Assembly: GCA_019057815.1 (NCBI GenBank)
Contig: JAHLWR010000001.1
Span: 192,001-256,000 of the forward strand
Direction of reading: 5' to 3'
DNA: 64,000 nt
Origin: Candidatus Heimdallarchaeota archaeon
GTDB taxonomy: Archaea > Asgardarchaeota > Heimdallarchaeia > Heimdallarchaeales > Heimdallarchaeaceae
Below, piece by piece: positions 1-29,610 of this stretch; position 1 is the stretch's first letter; each line of letters starts with the position of its first letter. The notes beneath the pieces are model-generated. The model did not search any database. It had not been told where the DNA came from and saw only the letters and a list, made by a program, of their open reading frames with translations. Both the position numbers and the translations under genes were made by a program.

Positions 1-56
1 GGTGGAGTTGCAACTCTTCTAACTATATTTATTAAAAGAATCTGGAGGAAAAGAAA

Positions 57-3000
57 ATGAAGAAAAATCAAATAATTAATTTAATTACCAAAAAGAAAAG
101 ACCTATTATTCAGATTATAACGACTCTATTCATTATATCTTCTTTACTGATAATGGATATTTCACCTTATCTTATTTCTGCAGAGAATAATGACAACTAC
201 ACGTTTTTTTACGATGATTTCATGTTTACGACTGTAAATTCTACAGCTATTTGGGGAGGAACACGTGATATAGAAAATGGAAAACTAGTTGTCCAAGAAG
301 GGAGAAAAGCATATGCAATTTGTAGTTTAGACCTATGGAACGGGTATACCGATTTAATACTAAAAGTAGCAATTTCACTTGGACAAACATCTCCTTCTGC
401 AAGGATTGTTGTTCGTGATGCTAATACTTCTGAGATTCTTTTCAGTGATCATCCTTCAAATATTCATTCAGTAGAAATCAATCTTCTTCCTTTTGTTGAC
501 CTTACTTCTACTCATCTCAAATTAGAAATACATGGATATGTAAAATTTGATATTATTAAGATTTATACTCCTAATCTTTTCTTATATAATCTACTTTTGG
601 ATGATAATGTAGAAGATGTTCTGGTGAATGAAGTAAGTGAATCTTCTTATCTTGAAGATGGTCAACAAGCACTTTTCAGACCTTATAGCCGATATGTTTC
701 TTTCAATCCTGAAGCAGGGAGAGGAAGCTATCTAATGGAAACTGAAGATTATTTCATTCCTTATTTTAATGATATTTGTTTAGTTGGACAAATAGCTAGG
801 ATGAGTTTTGAAATAGAAGATGAATCAGCATTTGATTCAACGGTTAGGTTTGTTATAGAAGCTAAGTTTTACCATGGAAGAGCAGTAGAATACAAGATAC
901 TTGCAGACATTACTGAAAGATTAGATGGTTATTCAACGCCTATTTATATCCCTCTAGATTCTCTAAAAGGGCAAGATGTTTCATTCCTCATTCATATCTT
1001 TCCACAACTCTCACTTGATTCTCCTCTTCCTTACATGGCTATTTCTTACTTGGGGATAACAGCTCAGGCTTCTCCCAAGATAAATGGAAGGGAATTTGAC
1101 GCCATAGATTATTCTACAAAAGACGTTTATACACAAATCACTCCTGCAACGGTGAATGGGGAGGAAAATCTTGTTTTAGCTAGAGATAGAGAAGGTACTA
1201 TTGCCACTTATCGGACTTTCATAGGAACAAACTATTCTCACTTAAGCTGTGATGGTTTTGTCTTATCAGAGTATTTAGATGAATCAGTTAGTGGAGCTTG
1301 GTCCCCCGATGAATCTGGAGAATCTTTAACTTTTGATTTATTTGAAGCGAAAAAAGGAGTGATAACTGTACAATCTGACAAGTTCGTGTTTACTACAGGT
1401 ACTTTGGAAGCTTATTTCTCTGTTTTTGAATATGGTGTAGCAACTGGTTTTATTTACAAATATGAAGGTAGTAACGAGTTTTGGACTATTGCTGTTCAAA
1501 AGATAGAAGAATCAAGAGATTTGGCTTTGCTTATTCATAATCATGCAATAGTAGACACTATCCCTCTCATTGAAGATATTTCTAGTGATGTTTCAGTAAA
1601 GATTATCAAGAACTTATTCCTCGATTCTTATCATATTTATGTTAATGATCAATTAACTTTTGTTCGTTCTCATGGTACTGCTTCAGCAAAAGTTGGATTT
1701 TATTATCGGGTTATTGATAATACAGATTTCGGACAATACTATCCAGCTCAATTTCATAGTATTGATCTCTTCTCTGTTGGGAAATATGATATAACACGCA
1801 TGTATTTAACTGTCCAAAATCCCATGAAACAAGAAACAAGGATTAAAGTCAAGGAAAGTTATTCAGATGAATCTTTATACATAAGAGAAAGAGAAATTGC
1901 TGAATTCTTAATACCTCATACTGACGGTTTCGAAACTTTTGTTGTTCATTGTATAGTTCCTAGTATACATAATAGAATCACGTTAGAACTTGATACAGAT
2001 GTTTTAGTCTATGTATATCAACTAGGTTTCCTTAGTTATAGCTCCTTTGGAGAAACAAGAGATGCGTGTAAATATTACAAGATAGCACCTTCAATAATTG
2101 AAAATGATGAAGGAAGAAGAGTTTTTACAGAAAAAATAGTCATTAAAGACGAATTAGAGTGGGTTACCTACGATATGGAATTACAAGAAGGGTTCTTTTA
2201 CATCTATGCAGATACCACACCAGACGACAATCTAGAATTTGAGATTAGTATCCGTCCTATTAATGCAAGTGAGTATGACCTTTTTACTTCTATAGGTACA
2301 GTCTATTTCCTTGAAAAGGATAGCAAAACTTACGGTCATCATCTTTTCATTAATTCTTCAACACTGGAAAATGTTCCTGCAGAATTAGATATTTATGAAG
2401 TAAAAATCAACGTTACTTCTTCTGATTATCCTATTAGTGTCCAAAGTTTAGCTACACGTAGTGTTTCTGATAAGATGGCTGGAGATGATTATTCCAACCT
2501 ATTGAGTGATGTTGAAGGATGGAGAGAAGAATGGGATATAGATTCTTCATCGTATACCTACTTAGACCAAACTGAATGGTATACTGATGTAGCTTTTTCT
2601 GCTTTAAACGGAGGACCAGCTGAAAACTGGTTCAGCCCAACAATTGCTGATTATGCTACTAATACCTTCAATGATATTTTTGATTTTGAAGAAGAAGACA
2701 CAGAAAAATTCAATGGATTTTATCTTTCTGAAGGTTATACAGTTAATAATGGTCTTCTCGACGTACAATTAACAGATTGTACAGGCACTAGTTGTGTAAT
2801 GAGTATAGGTGCAAATAGTGATATATCGCTTAATACTACAAAATACTACCATTTTGAAATAACTGTAAGAACAAACTCAGATCAAAATATGCGTTTTTAT
2901 GGTATAAGAGCCAATACAGACACTGGAAAAACATATGGTGAAAGCAGTTATATTCTTCTTCATTCCGAGCTTTCGACACAAAGATGGTTCAATCAAAGTT

Positions 3001-6000
3001 GGGTAACAATTAAAGGAGATATTCCTGTAGAAGACAGAAATATTTACCAGTCTATTTGGCTTGTATTCACACCTGATGATTACGGATCAGAATCTTCAAT
3101 AAATACCACCGAACACATATATGTTGAGGAAGTACATTTTTACAGTGATGATAGTTTAGTTTCTGAAGAAAATGCTTTTTATACAACTCTTACATCCTCT
3201 GAAAATTATATAATTGAACGCTTTTTAGGTAATACGATAGATGTTTCAGTATATCCTTTCTTAGAAATGAAAATACGCAGTAATAATATTGAAACTACCA
3301 CAGATGTTACTATAGGAGTACATACAACCTCTGCAGGCAATGGTTATGCTAGTTTTGATCTCACAGAGAATTGGTTTTATTATCGTATCAATCTTTACCA
3401 ACTCTTTATTCAGACATATACGACAAGATATCCTGATAATGACCCCTCACTGATCACTTGTTTTGATATTGACAAATTATTATTGTCATTTGAAGGGGAA
3501 ATAGATCTTTCTTCTATTAAGATTTATTCAATAGCCGGTTGGGAATATGTTCCTGATGTAACAGATTCAATATATTCAACAGCTCATCTTGAATTAGAAC
3601 AAGAGACCGTTTTCAAGTTAGGAACTGATTCTAAGTTAGTTTATGCTGTTGAGGTTGATGAATGGAGTTATTATGACGGTAATTATAGTTACTATCTAGA
3701 ATTTATGATTACGGAAAATCAAGGGAAAACAGTTCTTCTTTCATTGAAAGATGATAACGATAACCAGTTCATAGATACAATCTTCGTCCAAGATGGTAAC
3801 CTTTACTATGAAGATTGGTTTGAAGATATTTACTCTTTGAATATAACTGTTAATACCTATAGATGGTATTCTTTCACTCTCTATTCGACAGAAATAAGTG
3901 ACCCATCTCAACATAGTTACTATATATCGTTGGATAATAATCAAACTGCTGAAATTAATTATGTCGATCCATCAATGAATGGTAACCGTATTGAGTTAAA
4001 TCTTACTACAACTGATTCTGATTTGTATCTCAGAAGATTAACTGTCTCTCCATTTAATATATCCCAAACTTTTAGTGATGGTTTTGAATATAAAGCACAA
4101 GAAACAATACTGAACATACAATGGGTATTGAATAACACTGTTACATCTTCAAATAGCTATTTGACAAAAATTAATCTAGCAGATGGAGGAACTATCGCTT
4201 CTTCTTCTAGTTATTTAGTGATTGATGAAAACATCCTACTAAAATATGACTTACCTGATTTAGAATTTTTATCGCCTGAAGATTTCTATTTCTGGGTAAC
4301 AGCCAATGTTTATGCAGATAATCTTCAAATTCATATCAACGACGATTTTATTCTTTCTAAAAATGAAAATATAGGGATAGAATATTTCAAAGATTATAGA
4401 ATTACAACTGAAGATATTGGAGAATATCTTTCTTCAATTTCAATTGTTCCTTTAAATGATTACGCATACATTCAATTCCTTACTCTCTGGGGTAACTGTA
4501 CTCTCTTTGATTATTATACTGATTTCTCTGATGGTAATTGTACCTTAGACGATTGGATTGGTTCAAGTTTACCATTTATTACTAATACTGGTGATTTAAG
4601 TGCTCAACGATCTCTTGGTTCATCAATTGATACCTTTATTCATCATTATAATATGCCTTTTACTGATTATGTTCTCACAGCCACAGTTAATAGTTCTAGT
4701 GGTATATGGAGTGGTGACTATTGTACTGTTACTACAGGGTTAGTTTTTCATTCCCAAAACAAAAACATTGAGAGATTAAACTATTTTACTGGTTATTACC
4801 TAAAATACATCTGGATATATGAGCACCCAGGAATATATGAATCCAAACAACTTCAACTCTGGAATTACGCTACTTCCATGGATGACATCTTAATTGAATC
4901 TTGGTCCATACCCTATAATGATATTAATTATAAAAAAGCTGAAAGTAGTTTTGGTATCTCAGTAACTTATGTTAATGAGAGCTTCTTCATCATTGAACCA
5001 TTTGTTGACGAAATTGTTGTTGGAAGAGAAATTATCGAGGATTCTTCACGCATTTATAGCTCTGGTTATACAGGTATTTGTTATGATATGCTTACAAGTG
5101 ATACTCATCTTCCTAAAGGTGTAATTAACAGTTTTAGCGTCTTTCACAAATATTATTATCCTACTTCTGAACGTTTGATTTTAGGAGTAAATGATAAGGA
5201 TAACGCTTTTATTGTTGGAAAATTATATATCGATGAAGGAATATTTCAAACCGAGACATTAGATCTTTCTCACCAACAAACTCTTACTCTTACTTTTAAA
5301 GCTAAACAATGGAATACTAGGATGTTTATTGGATTATACCAAGATTCTCAACAATATGGCTTCAAGTTCTACAATGGAGATGTTTACAAAATAACAAATG
5401 GTGGAAGTACTTTACTTGTTAATGATTGGTTCAAGAATAATACTTTCCGAACAATATATGTTACACTCGTCTTTGGTTTAGATAATGATTTTAATATTTT
5501 CAATATGCAATTATTTACTGACAAAAGTTTCCGACCAGATATAGGTGATCCACTTTACATTTCTTTCAATAATACACTTTCCGATTCAGTTTTTAGAATC
5601 TCTACTTTAGAATCTTTAGAATTTTCATACGCAGATATAATTGTTGATTCTATTGAATGTGGTGGGATTTATCCTGTCGATATTGAATTTGATGACGGTT
5701 CAACCACACATACTATTCGGGGTTCAGGAGAGATAGCAGAATATTATCTTCAAGCATCAGCTCAAGGAAGTTTAAAGATTGATTCTACTGCTGAAGAGGC
5801 TATAATGTTTAGAGATTTTTATGTAGTCGAGGAATACAATACAACACTCGCATTTAGATATCTTTCTCCCGGTCATCATGATGAGTTATATCAAATTATA
5901 ATTTATGATCAAGGAGAGGCATATTTACAAGTCGGTATTGTTTCTACAGTGGATAATAAAGAAGAAATAATGATATCTGTTAATAATGGACAATCTATGC

Positions 6001-9000
6001 ATATTTTGCTTTTATTCGAAGTACCTTATTATCAATGGATTGATGTTTCTATTACCATTTCTCCATTACTAACAGTAACAGCTGATATCTCATACCAAGG
6101 AGTTAGAGAGAGTGATTCTGCTGATATTACTTACTATCTAGAAGAAAATTGTTATCATAATGTTAAAATTATTAAACCTTCAAACATTACTGATTTACCT
6201 CTTTATCTCAAAAACCTTAGAATATATTCTGGTGCAGGATTCTCTAGTGACTTTGGAAATGGGGAAATAACTGGGTGGACATTAAATACTAACAGTTTGT
6301 TTGTTCATTCAACTGATGTTGAAGATAGACCAACAGAATTGTATGTTTTTGCTGAACCTCTTGGGGGATGGGTAGACCTTACAGTCTCTGTTGACGATGG
6401 ACAATATTCACTAACAACAAGATTACAAGTAGAAGATTTTGAGACTTTAAGACCCTATGTTGTTCCTTTACCTTGGGGTTTTGATACTACTACAGTTCAC
6501 AAATATACTATCATCGCTAACGGAATTTTAACGCTCTATAGCCTATCTTTCTTACAAACGCTTTTAATAAATGATTGGTTAGTAGTTCAACCCTTCGACA
6601 ATGTTACTAATGAAATTCAGGATGAATTTACTCAAATAGGCTATTTAATCGAAGATTTTGAAAGCGATACATTTGATTATATGGAAGTAGTTTCCGATCC
6701 TGAAGGTTTTGGAAATGTTGGAAAAGTTATAGGAAATGAACCATTCGTTCTCACAGCATATGACACAGAACGTATTTCTGATCTTTCCTTTTATTACAAA
6801 TGGGATTGGGACGGTGTAGGAGAACCAAAACCTGGTAATATAATGCTTGAATTTGAGGTAAAAAACAGAGACGGTGATACGAGAGAGGTTACACTAATAA
6901 TCACCCCTGTCATTTCTTCCCATCCTAGCGGAATTATATTTGATTATAATGTTGTAACACTTCATAGTGATTATGACAATATGCATGCATTCTTCAACTA
7001 CGTGCCAAACTCGTGGCAACATGTCTTCATCACTCCTAATGACTTTGTTCTCTATGCAGGAATAGATACAGCAAGTTCTCAAATAAAAACCAATAAATGG
7101 CAAACTTATAGTGTCGATTGTCTCACTATGAAAAAAACAATTCTTGAGGAAGAATATTATATTGACGATATTTCTATCTATTATGAAGATGAAAACATCC
7201 TTGCTCCTTTTGCTAAATCTTATATAAGAACCCAACGCTTAAATCAAGGTAACGAGGGGGTTTGGGTACCAAACCAAGTTAATAGTCTGGGTTTCCTTGA
7301 CTTTTCAAGGATATCTTCTGACACTTCAATGGCTGCTACTGAAGATGCGTCTTTTGTCCTTGAATGTGATAAAGCTGCTGGTGCTATTATTCAAATAACT
7401 ACAACTAATCCATTCTTACTTTTCCAAGGAGGAGAAAAAATAGGTCAAGGAGTGCTCACTTCACCTTCTGAACCTATGAACTATTATATTGATGTTTATT
7501 TATACGAAGGCATTAACAGATTTGTCATTAGATCTTTTCATAAAGGTTCTGGAACATTTCCTTGGCAAATTAGGACTAAGATAGCAACAACCACAAATGT
7601 GAGAATAGTAACCAGTACGTATCAAGCTCAAGATAAAGATATGTTATCGACAGATGGAAATTACCCAATTAGTGATTGGCTTGTCTCTGACCGCCCTGTA
7701 AACTTTGGTGGTCTTGATTATGTTGGCGTGGGGGATGATCCTTATGATAGATTGGAAAAAGACACTGGTCATTACTTCTCTACACGTGCTTTTCCCTATC
7801 CTGGAGAACAGATGAATTACACTACTATAGCTAATGGTAATGAAGTTACAGAATGGGTAGGTCTTAACGATTTTTACAATGAAACAGGTGTAATGAACTA
7901 TGTCGAGAGTATGATGAATAAAACTTCAATTGAAACCAGCGATAAAATTATTTACTACACAAACTTGCATTTTCTACAAGACATAGATGACAATATCTTG
8001 AAAATAAAAGTATACTATGACCCTACATCTCTTATTGAGGCTATATATTACGATGGTCAATATGTTTATGGTAGTTTAGGAGAGATAGGATATACAGAAG
8101 TAATAGAAGGTATAGAAAAATTCTATAGCGATATCACAATTACTGCTTTAGATGATGGTTCATGGATTCTCAATATTCCCTTATCACCTAATTGGAATAA
8201 GTTTTGTTATGATTTAGAAGAAGCTGCCCCCGTTCGTCATGGTTATGCATTAGAGATTGGAGAAATGAGTACTTGTGATATACCTGTAACAACAAATCCC
8301 ATAGCTAGGGGTATTCATCGTTTAGCTATAGTTTTACGTGCTCCAGGTGTTTTGGGAAGTATCCCTTCAAATATCTTTGATATTCAAGCAAATCTAACTA
8401 ATTTTGATGATACAATGAATGCTTTTACTGGTATCACCGAGTATATCTCCACTAAACAAGCTCTTCCCGAAAATGGCCTTATGATGCAACTTGATGGCAA
8501 ATACCGAACTATTCCTAGCCAAGGATTAATGAATGGTAAGAAACCTTATACAGGAAAGAAAGTTCTTGAGAGCCAATCCTTCTGGGATGGCATTAAATAT
8601 CATTCTTTACGTATAGTTCTTATTGGTGTAGACCAATATGGCGTTTATGAGGATCTAAATGAGGATGGAGTGGTTAATGCTACTGATGCTGTCGGTTTAG
8701 CTTCTTATATGGTTATTTTGGATGCTGGAACCAAACATGAAGAAACTTCTCTTGTTCAACACATGATTGGTCCGGAAGGAACTGGAGGAACTTCTTCTCA
8801 ACCTACTAAATTATGTCCTAGGTTCTCAATTATTAGCTCATCTTTAGGTACTAATATCTTCGAGAGTTCTAATATACGCTTATCTCATAACAGTCAAACT
8901 ACTGATCAAGAGCCGTTTGCAATTACTTTACAATTTTCTAAAGATCAATTCAACAGTTTAGAAATTTCCTCTAATCGTCTTAACACCGCTGTTCCTTCTG

Positions 9001-12000
9001 AACAAGAACTATTAGATTTTATTTCCAATACTACAGACATTATTAAAGTCCAATTTAGCCTTTCTACTCCCATTATCTTAAGCTCTGATGATTCGGTTCT
9101 TACTTTAGATTCGGATGAAATTGTTTTCAATATTGGAGAACATACATTCTCTTATGACAGACAGTTACAAAAACTACGTTTGTATTATACCGATAAAAGA
9201 GATGAAGAAGAGATTTCTATTCAACTCGCCACTCAAGTTATAAGTCATAGAGATGCATATTCAATACATAAAAGCTATCATAAAATTGGTCAAGTAGGTG
9301 GTTTTGCCATCTATGACATAAACAAAATCCAACAAATATCTGAAGGAACGATAGTAGCTCCCAGTCATGTCTCTCTTGGACTTTTTGACTATATCAGCAA
9401 TATATTAAAACCAGTTTTAGGAACTAAATTAACTACCGTTGAAGGAATAGAATCTTCAATTAAAGCTTGGAAGAACGGTCGTACACCACCAAAATATATT
9501 GTTGTCCCTGGACCAGATAGGGATATTGAATTACCTGAACCTGTTGATGGGAATGATCCTAATCATGAGAATCCTGAAGAGGACCTACCTCCTGGTACTA
9601 CAGAAGAATCCTTTGAAGGAAATACAAATGGTGTTGCCGCTGATGTTGAGATTGACCCTGAACAAGTATTAATCGATACTATAGTTACTAGTCTTAATGG
9701 TATAGCTTCTGAATTGCAAAAAGACCCTCTAGATATCTCTGCGGGAGTGATTAGTTGGGCTTTGGACCTCATGGATGCTGACCCTGATGAGATTCTTGAT
9801 AAATTAAATGACGCACAATTCAACTATCTCGCCAATGCTTGTGTGTGGTTTTCTAATCTCTGGAACACTATTATGAACTTCTTTGAAAATCTTGGTAAAG
9901 AAATCTGGGAATTTATGAAAATGTTAGCTCAGATATATATCAAGATTATTAGTATTCAAGCAGGCATTATAATGGATCTTTTCAGAGTTTTCCTTTTATT
10001 TATCTTTTCAATTATTTTTGGAACAAATGTGGGATTACATGATACTTCTGAATTGAGATATGTTTCTGGTGGAGATTATATTTTCGATGAGGTAACAGCT
10101 CAAAACTTCCCCCATGTCTACAAACTTGACCACGTTATAGATGTTGCAACTGGTAAAACAGACCTTGAAGGAGAATTAACAGACGAAGAAATAGAAGAAC
10201 GAGCTAAGATTGATGTCCAACAAGGACAAGGAAACGATGCTAATCCAAATTCTGTTAAAAATGTCTTTTTGGAAATAGGTATTGAGAACAGCGATGAGGT
10301 AACAGATTTATTTTTTGGCAAATCAAAATGGGTTCATTCTGTTGAAGATGGAGATGAATGGGATCATTATTTTGGTCTGCGTAAACATCTTAGTCTCTTT
10401 GGATTAGACCTTTTCAGTGAAAACACGTTTATATTAATTTGTGAGATAGTTATTGGTATACTACCTATTACCGCAATAATCCAAGACACTAAAGATTCTA
10501 TCCTTGAGCCTATGAAATTCTTCCGAATATTCGCAAGAATTATGATACCTTTAGATATTACAGAACTATTTGGTAACGTTCTTGCACAAGTTTTTGGAGG
10601 AATGAAGGATTGGTGTGCTGGAACAGGATTAGGTAAAGCTCTCGGAGGAATAAGAGATTTTATTAAGAATATTTTCAACAGAATTGGTAAGTTTCTTAAA
10701 GAAACACTTGGTCCAATTCTAAAGAAATTTGCTAAATATGGAATGATCCTATTCATAGCTTTACTCTGCTTAGTTACGGTAGTCTTGATACCCATGAGTG
10801 GGATAGTGTTACTAGGTTTAGGTACAGCTCTTCTTTTAGTCCTAGGTTTCGTGACTTTCTTAGTAGCAGCGTTTAAATTCTTGAAGACTAGAATTATGAA
10901 ACCTATTTTCGATCTAGCTATGGGGGCACTTAAACCTGTAATGGACGCTATTGGAAACCTTATTAAGAAACTCTTCAAAAGTGCGAAAAATGCTGCAGAT
11001 ATAGTTGGAGTCACGGCTGTTGCAAAAAAAACAAAAGTTGGATTCAAGGCACTTCTTACAAAAACTAAGGACCTAATTCTTGATATATTTGGATATATAT
11101 GGCAGAAAATCACCAGACTCTGGGAAATTGGCACTTGGAAACCTTGGAAAAATAAGCGTATGCCTTGGTGTATAGCTTGTTACTCTAATGCTGCTAAAAA
11201 AGTATTGAACACCCAGTTTGATGTTTTAAGAAAAGCTGATGTTAAATCTAGATATATGCAAATACTTTGGGAAAGGATAGGTGACTTAAACTGGGCTAAA
11301 TTTAATGATATGACTCCTGATGAAAAATATTTGGTTCAGGAATTTGCTAGAATTATTGAACCCGACATAATTTTGGATAATATAGATCATATAGATGGAG
11401 CTTTCAAGAAGGGAGGATTATTCTTTGATGATAATGGTGATGTAATAAGCAATCTAGACAATAATAGATGGACTAAATCTGTTGATGCATTCGCATCGAC
11501 TTGGTTTGACAGTACAGGTAATAGTATGTCTAAAGGTATTATTTTTGACTATCTTAAAAAATTACAAAAACAAATCGGAGAAAATCCTGATAAAACCGAT
11601 TTTATCGACGACTTTATTAAAAAAACTGACGATGTTGATAGTCTTAAAGCTTTATGTATGAAACCTAATCTTATAGATGATTTGCTAATGACTGGTAATG
11701 AGGTTAATGATGACTTCGTATCTATTATCAAAAAACATGCTGATGATCGTTTAGATGCACTTATAGATACAAATGGGAATTTCGCAAAAACAATTGGAGA
11801 AGAAATAACGACTAAAGAAGCTGAATCTTATGCAAGAGTTTTACTTTTCACAGCAGGTATAGATGAAGCTAGATCCATGGATAAAAGCGATTTTGAAAGA
11901 TTTCAAAAAGTTTGGATTGTATTACATGGAGAAACAGATGAATTCCGAAATCCAGTGAAATTAATAGACCCTGATAATGACTATGGTATAGGAGAGGTAG

Positions 12001-23544: not shown

Positions 23545-23865
23545 ATGACACACATAAAACCCATGTCAAACATATTAAATTTACACAATGTTATCACCTG
23601 GATGAAAACAATATTCTTAGCTTTTGAATCAGGAAAAATTGATAAAAAAAGCGTTGCAAGTAAAACTAAAATAACTTTAGCTCTACTTCACAAATTTATT
23701 CCTGAAAAAAATGAGAGAGAGAATTATGACCTAATCCTTGATTTGTGTGTCTCACTTTCAACAATAAATCGATCTCAAGGGAATTTCGAGAAATTCTATT
23801 TACAAAGTCTGAAAGTAAATTTAGAGGAAATAGAAAAATCTTTGCTAGTTGAGAAAAATGAGTAG
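23545..23865 (+). CDS. Small helical hypothetical protein overlapping the GTPase start
   Basis: 106-aa ORF whose stop overlaps the ATG of the Rab-like gene. Confidence 0.65.
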   Translation: MTHIKPMSNILNLHNVITWMKTIFLAFESGKIDKKSVASKTKITLALLHKFIPEKNERENYDLILDLCVSLSTINRSQGNFEKFYLQSLKVNLEEIEKSLLVEKNE

Positions 23866-24382
23866 AATCCAACCTGATTATAATTTCAAAATTTTGCTAT
23901 TGGGTGATGCTGCAGTAGGTAAGACATCTTTAGTTCAAAAGTTTGTCCATGATAAATTCGCTGAGTCTTATTTGATGACCATTGGTATGGAGCCTAGTGA
24001 GCGATTCGTCACCTTAAAGAATGGGACAATAGTTGCTCTCTCAATTTGGGATCTTGCGGGTCAAGAGCGCTTTAGATTTATTAGACACACGTTTTATCGA
24101 GGGGCAAAAGCAGCTCTATTAGTATTCGATTTAACACGTGATTCTACTCTAAAAAATGCTAAAAAATGGTATCAAGAATTTATTGATAATTGTGGAAAAG
24201 AAACACATACTCTTTTGATTGGTAATAAAAACGATTTACAAAATAAGATTGCTGTTTCAGATGATGAATGTCAAAAAATGAATAGTTATATTAAAAGTTA
24301 TGATTTTATAAGAACTAGCGCTTTAACAGGGGAACATGTAGAAGATGCTTTTACGAAACTAGCAGGATTACTTGTTAAGTAA
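23858..24382 (+). CDS. Rab-like small GTPase (Ras superfamily)
   Basis: G1 GDAAVGKTS, switch I TIG, G3 WDLAGQERF, G4 NKND, G5 SAL; no C-terminal Cys prenylation motif. Confidence 0.95.
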   Translation: MSRIQPDYNFKILLLGDAAVGKTSLVQKFVHDKFAESYLMTIGMEPSERFVTLKNGTIVALSIWDLAGQERFRFIRHTFYRGAKAALLVFDLTRDSTLKNAKKWYQEFIDNCGKETHTLLIGNKNDLQNKIAVSDDECQKMNSYIKSYDFIRTSALTGEHVEDAFTKLAGLLVK

Positions 24383-26957: not shown

Positions 26958-27121
26958 GTAGGGTTTAACTATTTTTGTTTTATATAGTTGTAGTCATATT
27001 TCCAATTATCTAAATTATTAATTTTCCAGAATAATAGTATTCTTTCAGGCTGTGCAAAAATCCTTCAATAACTGTCTTGATAACAGAAACTATTTTAACT
27101 TTCTTTCGTGTCTTTAAATCG

Positions 27122-28123
27122 ATGGAAGAGGACAGCCGCTACTCACGACAATCTTTGATACCTGGATGGGATCAATCAAAATTAGATAGTTGTTCTGTTG
27201 TTTTAGTTGGTATAGGTGCAATTGGTTCCTATGTAGGTACAATTTTAGCTTCTTCAGGTGTAAAAAATATCACAATTATAGATTTTGATTCAATAGAACT
27301 TTCAAACCTTAACCGTCAACTGCTCTTTCGGGATGAAGATATCGGAAAATCTAAATCGGAGGTTGCAGCTGAAAGACTGAAGGAATTGAATCCTGAAATA
27401 ACCATTAAACATTTTAACAAAAAAATGGAGAAAGTTCCCAGTTCAATTTATGAGAAAGCTAATGTGATAATTGCTTGTCTAGACACATTTCTAGGACGCC
27501 GCTGGATTAATTCTATGGCACTAAGAGTCAAAAAACCTCTAGTATTAGGAGGAATGTTTGCTTTCTTGGGAGATGCTCAGGTTATTTTTCCTTTCAAAAC
27601 AGCTTGTTTTGAGTGTCAACCACTAGTATCCCAAGAGGAACTAGCTCAAGCTTGTACTCCCTTTGGTGAAGAAAGGAAAGCAGAGAGAGAAGAGGAAGAA
27701 GAAGCTATACTTCCTGCTGTTGCAACATTATCATCTATAATTGGCGGGTTTATGTCTCAAGAAGCTATGAAAATAATTCTTGGGATTGGTCAACCTTTAC
27801 AAAATTATGTATTTTATGATGGGCTTAGTAATGTGTTTACCCAACTAGAACTAGCACAAAATCCAGAATGTCCAGCTTGTGGGGAACTTTATCGACTTGA
27901 ACAAGTAAAATTTATTGCAACACATGGAGAGAAAATAAGAGATCTTATTGTTCGATTAGCAATGACTTATGGGTTAGCTAAACCAGATCTATTATTTAAA
28001 GGGAAAATACTTGAATATGAAAAAACTATTGAAGAGACAGAACTGGAAAACAACGCTCGTGTCTTTATCATAGACAAAAGTCTAGCTAAACCAATTAAAA
28101 TATTACTTAAGCTTAAAGAGTAA
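27122..28123 (+). CDS. Ubiquitin-activating enzyme E1-like (ThiF/MoeB fold plus C-terminal ubiquitin-fold domain)
   Basis: RYSRQ, GIGAIG, DFDSIELSNLNRQLLF, CFEC/CPAC Zn sites, putative catalytic Cys in QACT, Ub-like tail LLFKGKILE. Confidence 0.93.
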   Translation: MEEDSRYSRQSLIPGWDQSKLDSCSVVLVGIGAIGSYVGTILASSGVKNITIIDFDSIELSNLNRQLLFRDEDIGKSKSEVAAERLKELNPEITIKHFNKKMEKVPSSIYEKANVIIACLDTFLGRRWINSMALRVKKPLVLGGMFAFLGDAQVIFPFKTACFECQPLVSQEELAQACTPFGEERKAEREEEEEAILPAVATLSSIIGGFMSQEAMKIILGIGQPLQNYVFYDGLSNVFTQLELAQNPECPACGELYRLEQVKFIATHGEKIRDLIVRLAMTYGLAKPDLLFKGKILEYEKTIEETELENNARVFIIDKSLAKPIKILLKLKE

Positions 28124-28140
28124 GTGTCTTCTCTTTCTGA

Positions 28141-29610
28141 ATGCAATGTTTTTTAAACTTTGATTGCAAAGGATACATAGAGATACAAAGAAAAGTGGTA
28201 AAAATTACAGAAGACTACCTCCTTGCAACTGAGATGCAATTAATTTATGATAATGAAAGTGGATTTGAGCCGGTTAATGGCAATTTAAGACATTGGAAGG
28301 GTGAAGTAGGTACTGTTATAGGTACTTCAATTCCAATTTTTGCAGAAATCAAAATTCCCTCAGATTTCCCTCATCAACAACCTCTTGTCTTAATCACACC
28401 TAGAGTTAATCATCCTAATATGGAAGATGATGACTCTTTAAGTTTGCGCGTTTTAGCTCAATGGAATCAGAGTATTCATATTTATCAAGTAATAAGAGAT
28501 ATTAAACAGTTATTTATTCGCGTTCCTGCAAGACCATACAAAACTAAAAAAAGAAAACAAAGAACAGAGGGACGAAAAACGAGTTTACCGATTGCTAGAA
28601 TACCCACAGCTCGAATAAAACAAGTTTCTTTGTCTCCTCAAATCGATACAAAAAAGCAGCATGATGTTGAGAAAACAGCTATAGAAGAAGATATCCTAGA
28701 ATATCAAAAACAAATTGAGAATGTTTCGAAAGAAATTGAAAAAGAAAGAACAAGATTACTTGAAAAGCAGGGTATAGCTATTCAAAGAGGTAAATTTGAG
28801 GTTGAAATATCACAAAAAGATGTTTTGAAATCAGAAGTGTATGCGGTTCAAGAAATTTTGGAAAACTTGGAAGAAAAATTTGAGGACGGAGATTTACCAG
28901 CTATCGACTTTCTTAAATTATCTAAGAAATATTCTAGAGAAAGTTATAAAGCTGAAAAGAAACTTAGTTTCATACAGACAAGCTCAAGTAGCAGGATGGA
29001 TGAAAAGATGAGTAATAAACTTGATTTAGAAGCAGAATTATATGCTTCGATTATCACACTTGATAATTTAGCTCTAAATTACGAAAATAACGAAATAGAA
29101 TCAATACCCTACAAGAAACAACTACGTTCCTTAATTAGAAATATTTTCAAAGCTCGAATTAAACTAGAAAAAATAGGATTCAAACTTGAACATTTTATTA
29201 AACAAGAAAAGTTAGATGAAAGATGTCCAAAAGGGATAGGTCATTTGAGGATGGCAGAAGGTTTAGAAACAAAAGAAGCTATTACTATTCCATTTGATTC
29301 TTTGAAAAAACTACCTTCAAAGACAGCAGATTTCGTTTCATCAGCAATAGAGCTTATAGATCTGACTAGATTAAAATCAATAGCAAGAGCAGAACTTCTT
29401 TTAGCTGATATCGAAGAAATGATACACATCCTTAATAATTTTCCATCTACACCTAAGGATTACTGGGCTCTTGAAGATATGAAAAACTGGAAAGATGTTA
29501 TTTCAAAGTACAAACCTAGTGAAGTAATTAGTGAAAAAGATTGTGAACAACTAGAATTTCAAACATCTAGATGGCTAAATGATTTTCGAAGATTATTAAA
29601 GGAATTGTAA
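28141..29610 (+). CDS. ESCRT-I fusion protein: UEV - coiled coil - Vps23 steadiness box - Vps28
   Basis: E2 fold PSDFPHQQP...HPNMEDDDSLSL with catalytic Cys replaced by Ser; SB hairpin LEEKFEDGDL...F; Vps28 motif AELYASIITLDNL and C-terminal four-helix bundle. True start probably near 28195-28204. Confidence 0.88.
   Translation: MQCFLNFDCKGYIEIQRKVVKITEDYLLATEMQLIYDNESGFEPVNGNLRHWKGEVGTVIGTSIPIFAEIKIPSDFPHQQPLVLITPRVNHPNMEDDDSLSLRVLAQWNQSIHIYQVIRDIKQLFIRVPARPYKTKKRKQRTEGRKTSLPIARIPTARIKQVSLSPQIDTKKQHDVEKTAIEEDILEYQKQIENVSKEIEKERTRLLEKQGIAIQRGKFEVEISQKDVLKSEVYAVQEILENLEEKFEDGDLPAIDFLKLSKKYSRESYKAEKKLSFIQTSSSSRMDEKMSNKLDLEAELYASIITLDNLALNYENNEIESIPYKKQLRSLIRNIFKARIKLEKIGFKLEHFIKQEKLDERCPKGIGHLRMAEGLETKEAITIPFDSLKKLPSKTADFVSSAIELIDLTRLKSIARAELLLADIEEMIHILNNFPSTPKDYWALEDMKNWKDVISKYKPSEVISEKDCEQLEFQTSRWLNDFRRLLKEL

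Follow-up and report, generated by a model that had tools for sequence, protein, structure and literature searches.

The window analysed in the current study is a 64,000-nt stretch of DNA from Candidatus Heimdallarchaeota archaeon (assembly GCA_019057815.1, contig JAHLWR010000001.1, positions 192,001 to 256,000 of the forward strand). Near its start lies a giant gene whose product, P0001, consists of a signal peptide, a very long acidic stalk, a hydrophobic hinge and a C-terminal tail. From structure prediction it is concluded that the tail carries a putative restriction-endonuclease-fold domain with an intact catalytic-type signature. Comparison with an ortholog and with paralogous giants indicates that tails have been exchanged on the stalk by recombination, and the avoidance of glycosylation sequons suggests that it is probably exported rather than cytoplasmic. 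The best hypothesis, still unproven and rated close to but below an even chance, is that P0001 is a functional analogue of the polymorphic (contact-dependent) toxins.

The giant gene and its layout

The open reading frame (ORF) at 57-13943 encoding 4,628 amino acids (aa), as called by the first-pass annotation from the letters of the DNA alone, was found intact on re-reading, and pieces of it occur in independent metagenomes. A frame so long cannot arise randomly at 32% GC, and it is therefore not due to chance. In the source sample a single 25-kb contig covers the whole gene; three other, independent sediment metagenome studies contain pieces of it with 90-100% nucleotide (nt) identity, and orthologous fragments of P0001 are present in three related genomes. 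A chance ORF or a mis-assembly is ruled out by the spanning contig together with the pieces from independent samples. The features of the gene and its borders are as follows.

1..60, plus strand: 3' end of the upstream 2,079-aa surface-protein gene, TGA stop at 58-60
57..13943, plus strand: giant gene P0001, 4,628 aa
57..185, plus strand: Sec-type signal/anchor, with Lys-rich n-region, hydrophobic core at residues 17-35, then ..LISA/EN (putative cleavage)
186..9503, plus strand: acidic ectodomain, residues ~44-3149, no known domains
9504..9731, plus strand: linker, acidic and rich in Pro, residues 3150-3225, without conservation in the G017 ortholog
9744..10916, plus strand: hydrophobic/hinge module, residues 3230-3620, with amphipathic helices, transmembrane (TM)-like segments 3295-3329 and 3455-3478, and hairpin 3557-3611
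10260..10694, plus strand: hinge motif, residues ~3402-3546, the best-conserved patch common to all four giant paralogs
10890..11777, plus strand: Lys-rich amphipathic segment, residues 3612-3907, with conserved W/K patch WKPWKNKRMPWC
11778..13940, plus strand: tail module "family A", residues 3908-4628, zero sequons
11811..12956, plus strand: PD-(D/E)xK nuclease-like domain (predicted fold), residues ~3919-4300, with additional helical and beta elements
12063..12122, plus strand: catalytic-type signature D4003 ... E4020-x-K4022, on adjacent strands
13964..15421, minus strand: convergent 485-aa double zinc-ribbon plus helical protein, a candidate partner only

This layout agrees with what had been read from the letters. 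The signal/anchor helix appears as a hydrophobic peak behind a Lys-rich N-terminus; the proposed extracellular-type stalk of ~3000 aa corresponds to the acidic ectodomain of ~3,100 aa, whose export is probable; and the Pro-rich linker, placed earlier at ~9500-9660, the amphipathic and TM helices with their cationic amphipathic flanks, and a soluble K-rich C-terminal region (a tail of about 1,000 aa, residues 3620-4628) were all recovered. The order of stalk, hydrophobic module and enzyme-like tail was likewise correct.

The composition of P0001 changes along its length. Residues ~40-3150 contain 4-9% K+R, 11-18% D+E and 18-28% N/S/T, and aromatic residues make up 12-16% up to residue 2750 and then 8% and 6% within 2751-3250. 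The hydrophobic segments and the hairpin are embedded in cationic amphipathic helices, and residues 3501-3750 have a net charge of +25 with 16% K+R. The tail has a cytoplasm-like composition, with 9-12% K+R from residue 3751 on. The hinge consensus, E..F...E....I.A..QD.(K/R)D....F(F/Y)R....IP.DI, lies just upstream of the variable tails.

Searches with Pfam and NCBIfam gave no match for P0001 at E <= 1, except a sub-threshold dockerin-like stretch of 23 aa. When the whole protein, its tail, the tail homologs and the tails of the other giants were compared with Pfam, NCBIfam, PADLOC and PDB sequence profiles (A1/A2), nothing was found. A word-index homolog search confined to long proteins matched P0001 only to itself, and an ESM-Atlas feature search with residues 40-620 and 3905-4260 gave weak leads only, of which that for the N-terminus was similar to carbohydrate-binding modules.

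It was also observed that the stalk segment at 6880-8100 of the window (residues ~2275-2680) is the most diverged part of the gene in contigs of three independent sediment metagenomes, with ~90% nt identity; the parts adjoining it show 94-99% in those contigs. Diversification or recombination may be concentrated in this segment.

A predicted nuclease fold in the tail

The AlphaFold 2 model of residues 3905-4300, fed with an alignment of 22 sequences, had a predicted local distance difference test score (pLDDT) of 80 and a predicted template modelling score (pTM) of 0.86. Its core is alpha-beta-beta-beta-alpha, formed in the model by helix 39-52, strands 79-85, 100-106 and 109-119, and helix 131-144. 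D4003, the last residue of the GFD motif at 4001-4003, starts strand 2, E4020-N-K4022 is on strand 3, and E3947 is on the preceding helix. These four positions, together with K4081 and Q4112 downstream of the signature, are near-invariant across the 22 homologs. The retention of E...D...ExK in nearly all 22 members argues for catalysis. The nuclease-like motif noted in the first-pass annotation is thus a conserved one, and the C-terminal region has a predicted enzymatic fold of PD-(D/E)xK type.

Among solved structures the best match to the model was HamA, the Hachiman nuclease (Z 6.5, 167 aligned residues, root-mean-square deviation 5.0), with the next match 1.5 Z lower; it was followed by PaqCI, BsmI, CdiA-CT (Z 3.6), MspJI and Can2. 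Of ten shape matches in the ESM-Atlas, seven belonged to PD-(D/E)xK families (PDDEXK_1/4/13, SduA_C, HamA and Mrr_cat), and the HamA match had a TM-score of 0.58. The predicted core therefore resembles HamA, Shedu SduA_C, PDDEXK_1/4/13 and Mrr_cat in having E...D...ExK on the expected elements. Unlike HamA-type nucleases, the P0001 tail has no match to Pfam, NCBIfam, PADLOC or PDB profiles at the sequence level and no helicase partner; its domain forms part of a giant, probably exported protein, and a conserved region of ~330 aa comes after it. In this last part of P0001 no fold was recognised, and a model of the whole tail (749 aa, pLDDT 66) gave no usable match with Foldseek or VIA-align.

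Distribution of the tail and its exchange

An exhaustive HMMER search with residues 3700-4628 against 1.84 billion representatives returned 11 relatives in all. The tail module was present in 15 of 41 related genomes searched, all of one family. Family A occurs in three architectures: giants (P0001 and its ortholog in G017, a genome of a different genus); shorter proteins of 1.3-1.7 thousand aa in total, in which ~600 aa and a TM cluster follow a signal peptide; and soluble stand-alone proteins of ~640-975 aa.

In the G017 ortholog the N-terminus is 62% identical to that of P0001 and the stalk mostly 43-63%. Within the hydrophobic/hinge module the identity is 61-65% at residues 3291-3590, with 30% before and 42% after; from residue ~3600 it drops to 20-35% and stays low, at about 27% for the tail. 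In a maximum-likelihood tree of 21 family-A modules both giant tails fell into one well-supported clade of 8 members, in which the G017 tail was nearer to stand-alone C-part proteins than to the P0001 tail. The approximately unbiased (AU) test rejected the two giant tails as sisters (delta lnL 20, p 0.002), in the presence of long branches and in a test run after the tree had been seen, though planned beforehand.

The genome of the window holds four paralogous giant-gene cassettes, named by their contigs C38 (that of P0001), C7, C39 and C16. The four terminal giants share an N-terminal block of ~190 aa, blocks at ~2070-2500 and ~2760-2980, and the hinge at 3402-3546, as patches only and with 22-35% identity. 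The family-A hidden Markov model (HMM) matches only three proteins in this genome. By profile-profile comparison the tails of the other three giants matched neither the family-A HMM nor each other's family, and three tail families without detectable homology sit on homologous giant scaffolds. Tail families A and B both recur on a second type of scaffold. As a separate observation, the second scaffold is represented by G000:C23:13389-18266 (tail A) and G000:C16:23305-30795 (tail B), in each of which a signal peptide is followed by ~600-1,000 aa and a TM cluster; their N-terminal parts are 35% identical to each other, and their tails are of the same families as those of the C38 and C7 giants.

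The first-pass annotation had proposed that conserved stalks with swapped C-termini would support its reading. Such a pattern was found: stalk and module at 43-65% versus tail at 20-35% identity in the ortholog, the AU test, and tails without detectable homology among the paralogs.

Sequons, membrane segments and the side of the tail

Sequons (N-X-S/T) were counted with the reverse motif as control. The ectodomain of P0001 contains 31 sequons, with 29 expected. None occurs after residue 2991, and the tail has 0 observed versus 8.0 expected. In the tails of five giants (P0001, G017 and the three paralogs) there were 6 forward sequons versus 42 reverse controls, a depletion of ~7-fold (binomial p 1e-7); the ectodomains of the giants gave 159 sequons versus 172 reverse controls, and 782 soluble-type ORFs of the genome a ratio of 0.97. 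A soluble family-A copy (5 observed, 9.2 expected) and a family-B tail on a short scaffold (10 observed, 12 expected) were not clearly depleted. Avoidance of sequons in the tails suggests that the polypeptide meets the oligosaccharyltransferase yet must remain free of glycans, i.e. that it is exported, in line with the Sec export proposed in the first-pass annotation.

After the signal, the C7 giant has 0 strong hydrophobic segments, those of C16 and C39 have 2 each, and P0001 has 4. An even number in all four paralogs places the tail on the side of the ectodomain.

The operon and its likeness to aloposons

P0001 is the last gene of a co-oriented operon with overlapping junctions, in which it follows genes for a MinD/ParA ATPase (AAA_31 match, E 5e-26), a 249-aa protein and the 2,079-aa surface protein. 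The latter gene (G000:C38:185845-192060) encodes a signal peptide and a C-terminal anchor. The ATG of P0001 (57-59) overlaps its TGA as ATGA, and GGAGG is found at 44-48, 9 nt upstream of the ATG.

In the C7 and C39 cassettes ParA is 91% and 81% identical to that of C38, and the small protein 67-69%; no ParA or small protein was found in the C16 cassette. All three of these cassettes have a ~900-aa protein, one or two anchored proteins of 1.5-3.2 thousand aa and a terminal giant of 5,235-6,010 aa. That of C7 has ParA plus genes for 183, 904 and 1,551 aa, and tandem giants are present in C39 (3,224 and 6,010 aa) and C16 (3,157 and 5,978 aa). The C38 and C7 cassettes share a 7.4-kb front end with 91% nt identity (G000:C38:178201-185600, which lies upstream of the window, versus G000:C7:49682-57066). 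It spans surface-protein genes, ParA and most of the small gene, and the identity stops abruptly ~245 bp before the first giant gene, beyond which the DNA is unrelated. This abrupt end points to a conserved front end with replaced cargo.

Upstream of the cassette are two NosD/right-handed beta-helix proteins and a CarboxypepD_reg repeat protein (L013:5091-10989, i.e. G000:C38:177091-182989); they contain repeated DNA, with 65-83% identity to the C7 and C39 loci.

The first-pass annotation was not aware of any such system characterised in this lineage. This type of gene cluster had already been outlined as aloposons in 2022, and no function was assigned to it there (PMC8813620). Aloposons are transposons of Candidatus Heimdallarchaeum with the giant proteins Otus and Ephialtes; they are defined by tandem genes for proteins of 3,000-6,000 aa, integration at a tRNA site downstream of the giants, and a run of four genes upstream, one of them for a MinD/ParA-like ATPase (Wu et al. 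2022, PMC8813620). That paper gives the giants no function, fold or tail analysis, and no function was found assigned to them in the aloposon literature examined. The hinge and the fold of the tail, like the replacement of tails and their avoidance of sequons, are not described in this or in the toxin literature examined.

The present cassettes resemble aloposons in their Heimdall-group host, in tandem giants placed behind co-oriented genes including a MinD/ParA-like ATPase, in the several copies per genome, and in giants that have no known domains. Unlike aloposons, the first giant here has just 2,079 aa (the second, at 4,628 aa, is in the 3,000-6,000 range), and the giants are preceded by two co-oriented genes instead of four. 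ARAGORN found no tRNA in the window or on the 304-kb contig C38; the metagenome-assembled genome yields only 25 tRNAs, so that others may be concealed by introns or gaps. The neighbour genes scanned included no integrase. In two complete single-contig genomes of the family (G004 and G007) the stalk and the membrane module of P0001 had no match, and the best ParA matches were not followed by giants. The P0001 cassette is called aloposon-like and not a member, because the 304-kb contig has no tRNA and the first of its giants falls short of 3,000 aa; the likeness is one of gene layout.

A possible contact-dependent effector and other explanations

If P0001 is an analogue of the polymorphic toxins, the whole protein including the tail would be exported via the Sec-type signal, and the ~3,100-aa stalk would hold the tail away from the producing cell. 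The hinge, the hydrophobic hairpin and the cationic amphipathic helices might then act as a membrane-insertion or translocation device, by which the unglycosylated nuclease tail would be delivered into a neighbouring cell. The wider proposal, that aloposon-type giants form an undescribed archaeal contact-dependent effector-delivery system with glycan-free, recombination-swapped enzyme tails, is put forward tentatively, at somewhat below an even chance.

Polymorphic toxin systems often use PD-(D/E)xK domains as toxin modules, and polymorphic toxins with such domains have been predicted in other archaea (PMC6393860). As far as the account of Zhang et al. 2012 in PMC6393860 goes, P0001 is like CdiA and the polymorphic toxins in that a very long stalk follows a signal peptide and a conserved junction motif leads on to an exchanged C-terminal enzyme-like domain; the lineage-specific hinge motif of the giants occupies a position analogous to that of the pre-toxin domain. 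Unlike them, P0001 has internal hydrophobic helices, its host is a single-membrane archaeon, and it lacks FHA, RHS, VENN, DUF4157 and other known stalk repeats or pre-toxin domains (Pfam, NCBIfam). Membership in the contact-dependent inhibition (CDI), Rhs or MARTX systems was rejected, as none of their domains is present.

Several observations weigh against a toxin-like function. No co-oriented immunity gene follows P0001, the next gene being the convergent one for the 485-aa protein; no downstream gene, immunity-like or other, is common to the paralogous giants; and, unlike polymorphic toxins, P0001 has neither an adjacent immunity gene nor orphan tail-immunity modules. The zinc-ribbon family of the 485-aa protein also adjoins tail-A C-part genes in two other genomes, which is an association only, and a complex prediction for this protein with the tail C-part (4130-4628) was uninformative (score 0.00). 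The tail of ~1,000 aa is far larger than typical toxin domains (100-300 aa). Soluble tail homologs with an intact motif exist in a conserved housekeeping position between fumarase genes: a 945-aa protein with intact D...ExK and no signal peptide lies between the fumarase beta and alpha genes (G000:C22:20199-24861, L002), and this synteny is kept in a metagenomic relative (L006), where the fumarase subunits are 83-86% identical and the insert 50%, indicating its much faster evolution. The fumarase-linked copy implies that the domain is tolerated in the cytoplasm. The first-pass annotation had itself counted collinearity of homologs up to the C-terminus against its reading, and the family-A module (3908-4628) is indeed collinear and conserved to its last residues (W..W...NW).

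Variation among close strains is mosaic and not tail-specific, with other parts more variable than the tail. In the sequences of run X3 identity is 99-100% in the tail and ~91% at stalk positions 7261-8087; for run X4 the values are ~92% in the tail, 94-96% over most of the stalk and about 90% at 6888-8100. The fold matches of the predicted domain are modest (the best being that to HamA), and Foldseek against the PDB with the 3905-4300 model found nothing significant. The combined AlphaFold and Foldseek check proposed earlier gave a confident sub-domain model on the one hand and no significant match on the other. Finally, the membrane topology is ambiguous: both flanks of hairpin 3557-3611 are very basic, and a weak fifth segment is present around residue 3495 (Kyte-Doolittle 1.36). 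By the positive-inside rule these flanks favour a cytoplasmic tail if that segment spans the membrane.

The basic flanks on both sides of the hairpin and the cytoplasm-like composition of the tail would fit an outside-in protein, in which an ectodomain held by a five-helix anchor senses a cell, virus or surface and a cytoplasmic nuclease tail serves as defence or suicide effector or as signalling output, comparable to a Hachiman HamA or Shedu nuclease tethered to a sensor. Such a protein requires no immunity gene, its soluble cytoplasmic tail homologs exist, and the nearest fold matches are the defence nucleases HamA, Shedu SduA_C, Mrr and Can2. However, a cytoplasmic domain need not lose sequons, and three tail families without detectable homology are depleted in them ~7-fold when soluble ORFs are not. 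In the C7 paralog no membrane segment is convincing, and the C16 and C39 paralogs, having two each, carry their tails on the same side as the ectodomain; PADLOC finds nothing. This explanation is considered unlikely, though the likeliest of the alternatives.

Export of the tail is also compatible with a surface role in which its fold is a diverged, inactive nuclease used for binding or assembly in a structural coat or adhesin, the divergence being due to relaxed or phage-driven selection. P0001 is like giant bacterial and archaeal adhesins in its size, signal peptide, acidic ectodomain and a partner with a C-terminal anchor; its neighbourhood is rich in surface proteins (NosD/beta-helix, CarboxypepD_reg and the anchored 2,079-aa partner), no known enzymatic domains are detected by sequence, and strain-level divergence peaks in the stalk. 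Unlike giant adhesins, which end in anchors or repeats, P0001 ends in a Lys-rich, sequon-free, recombining tail of predicted nuclease fold behind a hydrophobic hinge. A coat protein would not be expected to keep the E...D...ExK signature in nearly all 22 family members, nor to show sequon avoidance or tail replacement, and this explanation is judged improbable. The least probable one is a role in mobile-element or DNA traffic, with giants for adhesion or for DNA uptake or transfer, a surface nuclease that processes DNA, and ParA partitioning or positioning the apparatus. The published description of aloposons as transposons with a MinD/ParA gene (PMC8813620), the 91% identical front end of two cassettes with unrelated cargo, and a tail that appears to be exported and has a predicted nuclease fold all agree with it; against it, no tRNA was found on the 304-kb contig and no integrase among the neighbours scanned, nothing ties the tail to DNA uptake machinery, and replacement among tail families without detectable homology is left unexplained.

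The contact weapon proposed by the first-pass annotation is thus retained in part: the layout, the swapped tails, the predicted nuclease fold and the sequon avoidance speak for it, and the missing immunity gene and the soluble homologs against it.

Neighbouring genes

Downstream of the convergent gene, the ORF at 15753-18461 (plus strand) encodes a 902-aa signal-peptide protein with a zincin-like HEFQH motif and a C-terminal anchor, and that at 18418-19449 (plus strand) a CPBP/Rce1-like intramembrane protease with a zinc ribbon. In another genome (G022:C101) homologs of the 485-aa and 902-aa proteins flank a tail-A C-part gene in rearranged order. A Ras/Rab-like small GTPase is encoded at 23849-24382 (Pfam Ras, E 6e-46); it is one of more than 30 paralogs in the genome, and a further copy lies just downstream of the C39 giant. 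Positions 27077-29610 contain a ThiF-type E1-like gene followed by a gene for a 489-aa protein with UEV/UBC-like, Vps23-core and Vps28 regions, and represent an Asgard ubiquitin/ESCRT-I cluster. The Ras GTPase, ESCRT-I Vps28/UEV and ThiF E1 genes bear out the Asgard host named in the first-pass annotation.

Implications

In the archaea closest to eukaryotes, few genes are larger than those of the aloposon giants, which have so far been named but not explained. The locus described here provides an anatomy that can be tested: a tail of predicted nuclease fold with defined residues, a junction for tail exchange, and a signature of sequon avoidance that reports export. Should delivery fail as an explanation, P0001 would instead be a giant sensor carrying a cytoplasmic nuclease, and as such a novel type of defence architecture. 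If the contact-dependent reading is true, P0001 would belong to the first system for contact-dependent antagonism or recognition in Asgard archaea, to our knowledge. The closest prokaryotic relatives of eukaryotes would then practise cell-to-cell warfare or kin discrimination, and protein would have a route from one archaeal cell into another, which would bear on the interactions of these syntrophic, protrusion-forming cells.

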